This document shows positions 1 to 4,124 of a DNA stretch of 45,905 bases, in pieces. The notes under the pieces were generated by a model that searched no databases, was not told the DNA's origin, and was given only the letters and a program-made list of their open reading frames with translations. The position numbers were made by a program, and so were the translations under genes. The stretch spans positions 1 through 45,905 of IMG/VR virus record IMGVR_UViG_643348547_000010. One strand, written 5' to 3'. Positions within the stretch are counted from its first letter, which is position 1. Each line of letters begins with the position of its first letter. This stretch comes from a virus. Taxonomy: Duplodnaviria; Heunggongvirae; Uroviricota; Caudoviricetes.

Positions 1-367
1 ATGAAGAAAGTTTTTCTTTGCGCCATCTTAGCCTCCTTAAGCTATCCGGCTATCGCCTCATCATTGCAGGATCAACTCTCTGCTGTCGCAGAAGCGGAAC
101 AGCAAGGTAAAAATGAAGAGCAAAGGCAGCATGACGAATGGGTCGCGGAGCGCAACAGGGAAATCCAGCAAGAGAAGCAACGTCGCGCAAACGCCCAGGC
201 CGCCGCTAACAAAAGAGCGGCAACGGCAGCGGTAAATAAGAAAGCTCGTCAGGATAAACTGGACGCCGAAGCCTCTGCGGATAAAAAACGCGATCAAAGT
301 TATGAAGATGAGCTACGCAGCTTAGAGATTCAGAAACAAAAACTGGCGCTGGCGAAAGAAGAAGCCC
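1..367 (+). pseudogene. Secreted coiled-coil protein gene, 5' portion, interrupted by IS629 (continues at 3948)
   Basis: ORF starts at 1 with signal-peptide-like N-terminus (MKKVFLCAILASLSYPAIA), Lys/Glu/Gln-rich body; reading frame runs into IS629 left end at 368. Confidence 0.6.
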
Positions 368-421
368 TGAACCGCCCCGGGAATCCTGGAGACTAAACTT
401 CCTGAGAAAGAGGTAAACAGG

Positions 422-748
422 ATGACTAAAAATACTCGTTTTTCCCCCGAAGTCCGTCAACGGGCAGTCCGTATGGTTCTGGAAAGTCAGGGCGAATATG
501 ACTCACAATGGGCGACAATTTGTTCCATTGCCCCAAAGATTGGCTGTACACCGGAGACTCTGCGTGTCTGGGTACGCCAGCATGAGCGGGATACCGGAGG
601 CGGTGATGGCGGGCTCACCACCGCTGAACGTCAGCGTCTGAAAGAGCTGGAACGTGAAAATCGTGAACTGCGCCGCAGTAACGATATCCTTCGCCAGGCT
701 TCCGCTTATTTTGCGAAGGCGGAGTTCGACCGCCTCTGGAAAAAGTGA
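422..748 (+). CDS. IS629 OrfA (IS3-family transposase N-terminal HTH protein)
   Basis: 108-aa [25 protein letters not shown]..., near-identical to orfA of the copies at 14287 and 15893-16219. Confidence 0.9.
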
Positions 749-1162
749 TGCCACTGCTGGATAAGCTGCGTAAGCTGTACGGGGTCGGACCGGTATGCAG
801 TGAACTACATATTGCCCCGTCAACGTATTACCACTGTCAGCAACAGCGACATCATCCTGATAAACGCAGTGCCCGTGCGCAGCGCGATGACTGGCTGAAG
901 AAAGAGATACTGCGCGTATACGATGGGAATCATCAGGTATACGGTGTGCGTAAAGTCTGGCGTCAGTTGTTACGGGAAGGAATCAGGGTAGCCAGATGTA
1001 CAGTGGCGCGCCTCATGGCGGTTATGGGACTTGCCGGTGTTCTCCGGGGTAAAAAGGTCCGCACTACCGTCAGCCGGAAAGCCGTTGCCGCAGGCGACCG
1101 CGTAAACCGTCAGTTTGTGGCAGAACGTCCTGACCAGTTGTGGGTGGCTGATTTTACTTACG
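745..1162 (+). pseudogene. IS629 orfB, 5' part, interrupted by group II intron
   Basis: Translation identical to intact OrfB (14610-15500) up to ...QLWVADFTY, then diverges exactly at the intron 5' end. Confidence 0.8.
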
Positions 1163-1818
1163 GTGTGCCCGGAGTTCAGGGCGGGCATGGATGCTTAAAT
1201 GAACCGCGAGTCTGTCTGGAATATTGAACCGGTAACTCACGATGAGAAACCCAACAATCCCACCGGGTGTGACGGTGGAGAACCTGAGCGGCAGTGACCT
1301 GCGGCATGCCCGCAGGGTGATGTAACCCGCTGACAACGGGGATTGAGGCGAGATCACTAAGCCGAGATGATCCTCAAGGTTAAGTACTGAAAGGCTGAAG
1401 AACATGAACCCGTTAATCCGCCTCTGTGGGTTGAAAACGTCACCACGGCCTACGTGATCTGACAGGCCGTGCAGGAGGAACTGGCAGTGATACGTAAGCA
1501 CTGCCGGTCGAAGGTGTTTTGACATGTATGCGAAACACCGGGGCAGCAGCGTCTATCACGCTTGCGTTGCTGACTTCTGCCAACTTGCGGCAAGCAAGGA
1601 TAAAGAGTGCGACGGGCAGCCTCCTCAGTATGCCTGAGTCCAGGCAGGTAAACCGGGGAAGGTCAGCGACGGATGTTAAGGGGGCATGGCTCCGATGACG
1701 CGCTGGCTGGCGGAGCTTCCGTAGTAGTCCGCGATGGGGAAAGCCCATTACATGGCGAAGGGAAGCAGTTTGAATGTGTTTGCGACGTGAATTAACTGAC
1801 CTAACGAGGTGAAGACCT

Positions 1819-3342
1819 TTGATAATCAGCGAAATGCAACGCAAGCTTGCCACATGGGCAGCCACCGATCCGTCCCTACGGATTCAACGGCTGCTGCGTC
1901 TAATAACACAACCAGAATGGCTGGCTGAAGCGGCGCGGATCACGCTTTCATCAAAGGGGGCCCATACCCCCGGCGTTGATGGCGTGAACAAAACAATGCT
2001 ACAGGCCAGACTGGCTGTTGAGCTGCAAATCCTCAGGGATGAATTACTCTCAGGCCACTACCAGCCCTTGCCCGCCAGACGGGTTTACATCCCTAAAAGC
2101 AACGGCAAACTGCGACCACTGGGTATCCCCGCGTTGCGGGATCGTATTGTTCAGCGGGCCATGCTGATGGCGATGGAGCCGATATGGGAGAGTGATTTTC
2201 ATACGCTCTCATATGGCTTCCGGCCTGAGCGCAGTGTCCACCACGCGATCCGCACGGTGAAATTACAGCTCACAGACTGCGGTGAAACCCGGGGACGCTG
2301 GGTGATTGAAGGCGACCTGTCCAGTTACTTCGACACCGTACATCATCGACTGCTGATGAAGGCTGTACGCCGCAGGATCAGTGACGCACGTTTCATGACT
2401 CTGCTGTGGAAAACCATCAAGGCGGGACATATCGATGTCGGTCTCTTTCGGGCGGCCAGTGAAGGTGTGCCACAGGGCGGTGTTATATCGCCGCTATTAT
2501 CGAACATCATGCTGAATGAGTTCGATCAATACCTGCATGAGCGCTACCTGAGCGGGAAAGCCAGAAAAGATCGGTGGTACTGGAATAACAGTATCCAACG
2601 GGGCCGAAGTACGGCGGTCAGAGAAAACTGGCAGTGGAAACCCGCGGTGGCGTACTGCCGCTATGCCGATGATTTTGTCCTCATCGTCAAAGGCACCAAA
2701 GCACAGGCGGAAGCCATCAGGGAGGAGTGTCGGGGTGTGCTCGAAGGCAGTCTGAAACTCAGGCTGAACATGGATAAGACTAAAATCACCCATGTTAATG
2801 ACGGCTTTATCTTTCTGGGGCACAGGATCATTCGCAAACGCAGTCGTTATGGCGAGATGCGAGTGGTCTCAACGATCCCGCAGGAGAAAGCCAGAAACTT
2901 CGCCGCATCGCTGACAGCACTGTTATCAGGCAACTACAGTGAAAGCAAAGTCGATATGGCTGAACAACTCAACCGAAAACTGAAAGGCTGGGCCATGTTC
3001 TATCAGTTCGTTGATTTTAAGGCCAAAGTCTTCAGTTATATCGACCGTGTCGTGTTCTGGAAGCTGGCTCACTGGCTGGCCCGCAAATACCGTACAGGTA
3101 TCGCTTCCCTGATGAGGTGGTGGTGTAAATCACCGAAACCGGGTCAGAGCAAAACGTGGGTTTTATTTGGTAAAACCAATCACGGCAAGCTCAGCGGCGA
3201 AATACTGTACCGGTTGGTGGGGCAAGGCAAGAAGCTGTTCCGCTGGCGGCTACCCGAAGGTAATCCCTATCTGAGGACGGAGACCAGAAACACGTATACA
3301 TCGCGCTTTACAGAAGTGGCAATGGCGTTCGCCAGCATTTAA
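1819..3342 (+). CDS. Group II intron-encoded reverse transcriptase/maturase
   Basis: 507-aa ORF with RT palm motifs (FDTVHHRLL, YADDFVLIV) and C-terminal maturase-like region; no HNH/En motifs visible. Confidence 0.9.
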   Translation: MIISEMQRKLATWAATDPSLRIQRLLRLITQPEWLAEAARITLSSKGAHTPGVDGVNKTMLQARLAVELQILRDELLSGHYQPLPARRVYIPKSNGKLRPLGIPALRDRIVQRAMLMAMEPIWESDFHTLSYGFRPERSVHHAIRTVKLQLTDCGETRGRWVIEGDLSSYFDTVHHRLLMKAVRRRISDARFMTLLWKTIKAGHIDVGLFRAASEGVPQGGVISPLLSNIMLNEFDQYLHERYLSGKARKDRWYWNNSIQRGRSTAVRENWQWKPAVAYCRYADDFVLIVKGTKAQAEAIREECRGVLEGSLKLRLNMDKTKITHVNDGFIFLGHRIIRKRSRYGEMRVVSTIPQEKARNFAASLTALLSGNYSESKVDMAEQLNRKLKGWAMFYQFVDFKAKVFSYIDRVVFWKLAHWLARKYRTGIASLMRWWCKSPKPGQSKTWVLFGKTNHGKLSGEILYRLVGQGKKLFRWRLPEGNPYLRTETRNTYTSRFTEVAMAFASI

Positions 3343-3347
3343 ATGGA

Positions 3348-3381
3348 GAGCCGGATGCGCTGAAAGGTGCACGTCCGGTTC
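3348..3381 (+). ncRNA. Group II intron domain V
   Basis: GAGCCGGATGCGCTGAAAGGTGCACGTCCGGTTC: 34-nt hairpin with AGC triad and GNRA-type loop, located just after the IEP stop and followed by a short domain VI-like hairpin. Confidence 0.8.
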
Positions 3382-3432
3382 GGGGAGGAGAGGCAGGGAA
3401 ATAGTCCGACTACGCCCTGCCTCTTACTCTAC

Positions 3433-3905
3433 TCAGCACATGGCAGGGGGTCGTCTATGTGGCGTTCATCATTGATGTGTTTGCCGGATACATCGTGGGG
3501 TGGCGGGTCTCATCGTCTATGGAAACGACATTCGTGCTGGATGCTCTGGAGCAGGCGTTATGGGCCCGTCGACCGTCCGGCACAGTCCATCACAGTGATA
3601 AAGGTTCTCAGTATGTATCGCTGGCCTACACACAGCGGCTTAAGGAAGCCGGATTACTGGCATCAACAGGAAGTACTGGTGACTCGTATGACAACGCGAT
3701 GGCGGAGAGCATCAATGGCCTTTACAAAGCGGAGGTAATACACCGTAAGAGCTGGAAAAACCGTGCAGAAGTGGAACTGGCCACACTCACGTGGGTGGAC
3801 TGGTATAACAATCGACGATTGCTGGAAAGGCTGGGCCATACTCCTCCGGCAGAAGCAGAAAAAGCTTATTATGCTTCCATCGGAAACGATGATCTGGCAG
3901 CCTGA
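3433..3905 (+). pseudogene. IS629 orfB, 3' part (downstream of intron)
   Basis: Translation ...[20 protein letters not shown]...NDDLAA matches C-terminal part of intact OrfB; three nucleotide differences within 17 nt after the junction. Confidence 0.8.
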
Positions 3906-3947
3906 GTTCACAGATAAAACACTCTCCAGGAAACCCGGGGCGGTTCA

Positions 3948-4124
3948 GCCCGCGTTAAGCGAGAAAACGAATTTATCGATCAGGAACTGAAGCACAAAGC
4001 TGCGCAAACCGATGTGGTGCAATCTGAAGCTGACGCAAACAGAAATATGACTGAAGGCGGTCGCGATCTGATGAAAAGCGTGGGCAAAGCAGAAGAGAAC
4101 AAATCGGACAGCTGGTTTAATTAA
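3948..4124 (+). pseudogene. Secreted coiled-coil protein gene, 3' portion (downstream of IS629)
   Basis: Removing the IS and one GCCC copy joins 1-367 to this segment in frame (...KEEARVKRENEFIDQELKHK...SDSWFN stop at 4122-4124). Confidence 0.55.

Follow-up and report, generated by a model that had tools for sequence, protein, structure and literature searches.

The first 4124 positions of a viral record of 45,905 nucleotides assigned to the Caudoviricetes (IMG/VR record IMGVR_UViG_643348547_000010, positions 1 to 45,905; below, the window is this whole stretch) hold a gene that is split by an insertion sequence (IS) of the IS629 type and that converges on a phage lysis cassette. To which genome does the split gene belong, the prophage or its bacterial host, and through which events did it come to lie in two pieces beside phage genes? 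A sequence-only reading had described it as encoding a secreted coiled-coil protein, had suggested a phage accessory (moron) gene, and had held the choice between prophage and host flank to be undecidable from the window. We find that the split gene is yfgI, a core gene of the Escherichia coli chromosome. Taken as a whole, it is highly probable that this host gene was cut by an IS629 isoform which later received the group II intron E.c.I4, and that the prophage integrated separately at the neighboring guaA gene. The features considered are collected in Table 1.

To reconstruct the gene, window positions 1-367 and 3952-4124 were rejoined after taking out 368-3951. The rejoined open reading frame (ORF) of 540 nt stays in frame and encodes 179 amino acids plus a stop, beginning MKKVFLCAILASLSYPAIASSLQ... 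and ending ...NKSDSWFN. The predicted restoration of one protein with the end ...SDSWFN on excision is thereby borne out, at a length of 179 residues rather than the roughly 178 proposed. A database search with the rejoined protein gave the Pfam family DUF5384 (PF17358) with 208.6 bits (E 5e-62; cut-off 25), residues 33-178 matching profile positions 1-145 of 145. The 540-nt query was found in 5417 of the 5426 complete E. coli genomes, in 5403 of them as a single-piece match over at least 80% of its length, and all matches are chromosomal and annotated as yfgI. The two outcomes that would speak against one split gene were looked for and neither was found: among the 5417 genomes, 1-367 and 3952-4124 were nowhere seen as separate complete genes, and the uninterrupted allele is present in K-12 and thousands of other genomes. 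An apparent deletion variant in GCA_000456805.1 was rejected, being an assembly gap of Ns.

The rejoined gene is 99.3% identical in nucleotide sequence to K-12 yfgI (b2506, "nalidixic acid resistance protein YfgI"), which lies at the same yfgH-yfgI-guaA locus, whereas the window copy is interrupted at codon 123. Positions 1-367 are identical in the E. coli genomes CE10, N32, AR_0013, and AF57, with three differences from K-12. The proteins differ by one amino-acid change, A78V (window codon 232-234), at a position where 90% or more of the aligned family members have alanine. The change is common to all yfgI::IS629 genomes examined, and it could be either a lineage polymorphism or a change that followed inactivation. 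Intact E. coli YfgI proteins vary in length from 170 to 180 residues (database variants P0002-P0038), which suggests frequent in-frame insertions and deletions, at a guess in the less conserved central region at about residues 40-95. Published information on YfgI is thin. Deletion of yfgI in K-12 reduced survival in nalidixic acid to 7% of wild type and left survival in kasugamycin and ampicillin near wild type (PMC3536626), the only yfgI phenotype that we found; the Salmonella orthologue srgL belongs to an SdiA-regulated operon, beside a gene for a SlyB/YfgH-like lipoprotein (PMC11619404).

The surroundings of yfgI locate the border between host and phage DNA. Gene order in K-12 is pdeF, yfgG, yfgH, yfgI, and then the convergent guaA and guaB; yfgH lies 15 bp upstream of yfgI in K-12, CE10, N32, AR_0013, and AF57, and in genomes without the prophage guaA is the convergent downstream neighbor; yfgH-yfgI-guaA is the ancestral order. 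In the prophage-free genome AR_0013, the match to the window is 100% and covers exactly 1-4233, after which this genome runs on into guaA; from 4234 on the window diverges from it and consists of phage DNA. The last 17 host positions form the core of the attachment (att) site, a copy of the 3' end of guaA. This 17-mer occurs once in the window. CE10 contains a related prophage at this site, and there the 17-mer is found at both prophage ends (positions 286-302 and 39895-39911 of the CE10 locus L007), the distal copy belonging to the real guaA. The phage thus integrates into the guaA 3' end via the 17-bp core and supplies replacement codons. Positions 1-4233 are host chromosome throughout, including yfgI, the 92-bp spacer that separates it from the att core, and, within this spacer, the hairpin terminator between yfgI and guaA (terminator scan match at 4192-4165). 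Contrary to the sequence-only reading, the choice between prophage and host is therefore partly decidable from the window, which holds the copy of the guaA 3' end. The window contains one prophage end only, and the real guaA lies outside it.

The insertion itself left a clear footprint. The left end of the IS starts at 368 (TGAACCGCCCCGGG..., in a longer stretch TGAACCGCCCCGGGAATCC...) and its right end stops at 3947 (...CCCGGGGCGGTTCA), each directly adjoined by GCCC. K-12 has ...GAAGAAGCCCGCGTTAAGCGAG... where the insertion lies (longer stretch GAAGAAGCCCGCGTTAAG), with a single GCCC. This is the predicted empty site, and the 4-bp repeat, which had been noticed from the window, is thus a real target-site duplication and not a chance match. 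Duplications of 3-4 bp are reported for IS629 (PMC3271280), and GCCC falls in this range. The total insert in yfgI measures 3580 bp, made up of a 1310-bp IS629 and a 2270-bp group II intron; the IS629-type element named before was thus confirmed, but the intron at 1163-3432 had been missed.

Without the intron, the two parts of the IS (795 and 515 bp) add up to 1310 bp and match the intact copy of CE10 at all 1310 positions. The first 14 bases of the terminal repeats are identical at both ends, and 23 of the first 25 match. The 5' part ends in orfB codons just after the first catalytic Asp. The identical CE10 copy is annotated with a programmed frameshift and a 404-residue product that contains the HTH_21 and rve domains. 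Over the 5' 795 bp, the identity to the element labeled "IS3 family IS629" in the Stx2a phage record LC567824.1 is 96.1%. In ISfinder practice, elements whose nucleotide sequence agrees with that of a reference IS by 95% or more are isoforms of it, and by this measure we assign the element in yfgI to IS629 of the IS3 family as an isoform. With the IS629 of E. coli O157:H7 and Shigella it shares the length of 1310 bp, inverted-repeat ends of the form TG..CA, the orfA/orfB frameshift pseudoknot, a duplication in the 3-4-bp range, and the inactivation of a gene by insertion; it differs in being diverged by about 4% from the O157-type IS629 and in carrying a group II intron.

The boundaries of this intron follow from the intron-less CE10 copy at the identical yfgI site, which reads ..TTACG/TCAGC.. 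across the junction. Both ends agree with those of group II introns, the 5' end being GTGTG (GUGYG) at 1163 and the 3' end ..TAC (AY), and the intron ORF is open over its full length and annotated as ltrA in AR_0013 and AF57. The intron was compared with the catalogued copy E.c.I4-2b of E24377A (NC_009801, 4848623-4850893; coordinates from the supplement of PMC3522654), to which it is 99.3% identical over 2301 aligned bases. E.c.I4 is reported to home into specific positions of the transposase genes of IS629, IS911, ISEc16, and ISEc31 (Leclercq and Cordaux 2012, PMC3522654). The host of the E24377A intron is an unnamed IS3-family element (by its RefSeq label only), and the sense orientation is shared. 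As we read the exon sequences, the last codons of the 5' exon are D-F-T-Y in the window and D-V-T-Y in E24377A, and this common D-x-T-Y end places both introns at the same homologous position. With the intron in sense orientation, splicing would restore the orfB mRNA. A candidate exon-binding site 1 (EBS1) is found about 330 nt into the intron, in the loop of a hairpin; from its position and complementarity, the assignment is plausible. Splicing and retrohoming at yfgI itself may be expected; the indirect hints are the filled and empty orthologous sites in one lineage and the complementarity of the candidate EBS1 to the exon end (IBS1). There is no difference of substance from the catalogued E.c.I4. 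What the yfgI locus adds is an orthologous pair of empty and filled intron sites that coexist within one clonal lineage.

Intermediate states of the locus were found in sister genomes. The yfgI/IS junction is shared by only four complete RefSeq genomes. At yfgI, N32 and CE10 contain the IS only, while AR_0013 and AF57 contain the IS with the intron; a prophage is present at guaA in CE10 and absent there from N32, AR_0013, and AF57. The full layout of the window was seen in no complete RefSeq E. coli genome. It is present in the draft genome GCA_964053335.1, with IS, intron, and prophage, at 99.8% identity to the window over 6396 bp. The exact 131-residue fusion ORF that now begins at the yfgI start (Table 1) occurs in 391 index blocks of a public assembly collection, and among the ten places shown for it, one (the same draft) combines the three elements. 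To order the events, 6.4 kb of upstream sequence were aligned for 12 yfgI::IS629 genomes and K-12. The lineage is nearly invariant there, and the only single-nucleotide polymorphism (SNP) found in more than one genome, in ppx, follows the intron: the five genomes that lack it all keep the base of K-12, and the seven that carry it all have the derived base. This single SNP supports IS insertion first, followed by one later intron gain. The prophage occurs in both the intron-less and the intron-bearing sub-lineages; the prophages of the window and CE10 are 95-99.96% identical in shared blocks and contain several non-homologous segments in the early region, and their host flanks are identical. 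The simplest reading would be independent lysogenisation by related phages.

We suggest the following course of events. An IS629 isoform transposed into codon 123 of yfgI and duplicated GCCC. Later, in one sub-lineage, E.c.I4 would have retrohomed into this resident IS629 copy at its usual site, in sense after the codons of the first catalytic Asp motif of orfB, where splicing could still yield an intact transposase mRNA. Separately, a K1-endosialidase prophage of the podovirus type integrated at the 17-bp site in the guaA 3' end, bringing its lysis cassette next to yfgI. The gene is left with a 131-residue product that has lost 57 residues from its C-terminus, where the family is best conserved, and the allele is most probably null.

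To assess the consequences for the protein, 22-25 members of the family were aligned, drawn from Escherichia, Citrobacter, Salmonella, Enterobacter, and Pseudocitrobacter. Conservation is highest over residues 95-179, and the IS cuts this block in the middle, between A122 and R123, that is, between LALAKEEA and RVKRENEFIDQELK. The 57 lost residues hold 28 of the 53 positions that are invariant in the 25-sequence alignment, W177 and F178 among them. From this pattern, yfgI::IS629 is very likely a null allele. Since no gene of the same orientation lies downstream of yfgI, no polar effect is expected. The N-terminus, with MKK, a hydrophobic stretch, and AIA/SS, resembles a signal peptide over residues 1-19, and across the 25 family members position -1 is Ala or Ser and position -3 is small. 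Judged by eye and hydropathy, YfgI thus appears to have the features of a Sec signal peptide with a family-conserved cleavage site of the AxA type. A lipoprotein reading of the "FLC" in this region was rejected, as the family does not conserve Cys7 and a lipobox is lacking.

The mature part is rich in Ala, Glu, Gln, and Lys. An AlphaFold2 model built from a 22-sequence alignment for the database protein P0001, which is 99% identical to rejoined YfgI, consists of one uninterrupted helix over residues 17-178 (mean predicted local distance difference test score 83.8, predicted template modeling score 0.35) and supports the proposed helical body. The proposed coiled coil fared differently: a scan for hydrophobic residues at heptad positions a and d reached a maximum of 5 of 8, a value attained by 34% of shuffled sequences, and hence gave no coiled-coil signal above the shuffled controls. 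No related protein was found among solved structures, where the only match was to an Smc coiled-coil segment at chance level (E 0.54), and NCBIfam returned only sub-threshold TolA and MutL noise.

The sequence-only suggestion that the split gene is a prophage moron for a secreted protein at the lysis end has the position of the gene in its favor, since it converges on the lysis cassette at a distance of less than 220 bp and sits within an apparent provirus-caller window. With the lysis-end morons of lambdoid phages, such as bor, it shares only this adjacency and a signal peptide (here, a signal-peptide-like N-terminus). In contrast to them, yfgI lies outside the att site, the core of which is downstream of both the gene and its host terminator; the near-universal E. 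coli gene is always chromosomal, between yfgH and guaA, and in N32, AR_0013, and AF57, which lack the prophage, guaA comes right after this same split gene. We therefore reject a phage origin. It is unlikely that the 3580-bp composite of IS629 and E.c.I4 moved into yfgI as one unit and that the intron-less copies of N32, CE10, and others arose afterwards by precise intron loss or by conversion from IS629 copies without the intron. The same composite does occur, about 99.9% identical, at other loci in unrelated strains, for example in EC958 (sequence type 131), and the many IS629 copies per genome (roughly 27-31) are possible conversion donors. However, the sole informative flanking SNP is derived in all intron-bearing and ancestral in all intron-less genomes, retrohoming of E.c.I4 into resident IS629 copies is documented (PMC3522654), and the interrupted orfB would give no transposase in cis unless the intron is spliced.

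For the protein, the alternative to a null allele is that the truncated 131-residue product is still exported and retains a partial or altered function. The signal peptide and 103 mature residues remain, the predicted fold is a simple helix, and the allele persists in the many sampled assemblies counted above; yet such persistence is equally expected of a neutral pseudogene in a clonal lineage, and the cut in the middle of the most conserved block removes the invariant positions named above, which makes a functional remnant improbable. Some points weigh against our preferred reading of IS insertion, later intron gain, and loss of yfgI. The order of events relies on one SNP that is polarized by K-12, a distant outgroup, and precise intron loss or gene conversion could yield intron-less copies; the identity to IS629 refers to the 5' 795 bp, and the signal peptide was assessed by visual inspection and hydropathy; we infer the loss of function for this lineage, and the truncated YfgI keeps its signal-peptide-like N-terminus together with 103 mature residues.

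The main value of these results is a correction: the first 4.2 kb of a provirus-like window are host DNA, and an apparent secreted phage protein is the product of a core gene, yfgI, most probably knocked out by an IS. All components are already known and behave as in the literature, that is, yfgI/DUF5384, the IS629 isoform with its 4-bp duplication, E.c.I4 at its homing site of the IS3 type, and a prophage with a tyrosine integrase that sits at the 3' end of a gene. In the sister genomes CE10, N32, AR_0013, and AF57, the DUF5384 pseudogene halves (the 3' fragment as a partial pseudogene), the transposase of the IS3 family, and ltrA are annotated in RefSeq already; yfgI::IS629 is an ordinary lineage-specific pseudogene and tells nothing new on mechanism. 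The locus is a neat example of an intron in an IS in a gene beside a prophage, with three nested or adjacent mobile elements. The orthologous intermediates could serve as lineage markers or help to date E.c.I4 and IS629 activity, and they might form a natural time series (empty, IS, IS with intron, with or without prophage) for rates of E.c.I4 retrohoming within a clone.

The isolates come from cerebrospinal fluid (CE10, N32) and blood (AF57). With these sources in mind, yfgI loss might be more than a neutral accident, but we give only a slim chance to the joint proposal that it is a fixed and possibly adaptive marker of an invasive clone of extraintestinal pathogenic E. coli of the O7:K1 type and that YfgI is a periplasm-spanning partner of YfgH. 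If it were true, intact YfgI, with its predicted helix of about 160 residues, would partner the SlyB-like outer-membrane lipoprotein YfgH, and its loss would alter the envelope. A second shared gene loss in this neighborhood concerns pdeF, about 1.4 kb upstream of yfgI and beyond the window; each of the four complete yfgI::IS629 genomes has it annotated as a pseudogene because of an internal stop.

Table 1. Features of the window at the yfgI locus and in the adjoining prophage
Feature	Position	Strand	Basis or remark
yfgI 5' fragment (codons 1-122 and base 1 of codon 123)	1..367	+	Pfam DUF5384 on rejoined protein
ORF now encoded, 131 aa: 122 YfgI residues and 9 IS-derived (LNRPGNPGD)	1..396	+	stop 394-396 within IS629 left end
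Target-site duplication GCCC, left copy	364..367	.	directly before IS left end
5' portion of the IS629 isoform (795 bp), with left inverted repeat, orfA, and orfB as far as ..WVADFTY	368..1162	+	
IS629 orfA	422-748	+	matches HTH_Tnp_1
ALIL frameshift pseudoknot, IS3-family orfA/orfB -1 frameshift region	703..819	+	Rfam RF01497, 116 bits, E 1.6e-30
E.c.I4 group II intron, 2270 bp, sense within IS629 orfB; 5' GTGTG, 3' ..CTAC	1163..3432	+	
Candidate EBS1 CGTAAG, loop of hairpin GGCAGTG-ATACGTAAG-CACTGCC	1493..1498	+	complementary to last 6 nt of 5' exon (CTTACG)
Intron-encoded protein (ltrA-like), 502 aa from ATG, full-length open	1834..3342	+	Pfam RVT_1 E 1.4e-34, GIIM E 1.3e-10
3'-terminal catalytic region of intron RNA	3346..3432	+	Rfam RF00029, 64.9 bits vs gathering score 40
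3' portion of the IS629 isoform (515 bp), with remainder of orfB (stop 3903-3905) and right inverted repeat	3433..3947	+	
Target-site duplication GCCC, right copy	3948..3951	.	directly after IS right end
yfgI 3' fragment (rest of codon 123 to stop; 57 residues RVKRENEF...SDSWFN)	3952..4124	+	
Host hairpin terminator between convergent yfgI and guaA	4163..4195	.	identical in K-12 and AR_0013
17-bp att core AATCATTCCCACTCAAT, copying the last four guaA codons with the stop (minus strand)	4217..4233	.	prophage begins 4234
Prophage lysis cassette: DUF2514 protein, GH19 endolysin, two holins	4344..6141	-	
K1 endosialidase tailspike, 1039 aa	6448-9567	-	complete K1-phage endosialidase domain set
Integrase	44655-45905		

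The window starts exactly at the ATG of yfgI and ends exactly at the start codon of the integrase. It looks like a gene-boundary provirus call that overshot by 4233 bp into the host, probably owing to the transposase and reverse-transcriptase genes. By the domain content of its endosialidase tailspike, the prophage is predicted to be specific for the K1 (polysialic acid) capsule, and its host lineage is that to which CE10, an O7:K1 strain, belongs. From the annotation of its CE10 relative, it also encodes a T7-gp14-type core protein, a Bbp16-type capsid cement protein, and a lambda-like replication module with replication protein P.

A second IS629-type element, 96-98% identical to the yfgI copy, is present within the prophage as a full copy at 14232-15543. 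Directly adjoining it, in inverted orientation, is a partial copy of 732 bp (15543-16274), which is 99.9% identical to the first 732 bp of the full copy. The corresponding site of the CE10 prophage is uninterrupted and lies within a 2475-nt virion gene (L007 about 10450-10456); because the IS629 copies at 14232-16274 interrupt this gene, the prophage of the window is probably defective. Finally, the integrase-side att region of CE10 (L007 about 39825-39852) contains the hairpin AAAAACCCTCTGTAAAAACAGAGGGTT, nearly identical to the host terminator between yfgI and guaA (AAAAAACCCTCTGTAGTAACAGAGGGTTTTGTT), and the phage appears to carry in its own version of the terminator which its integration displaces from guaA.

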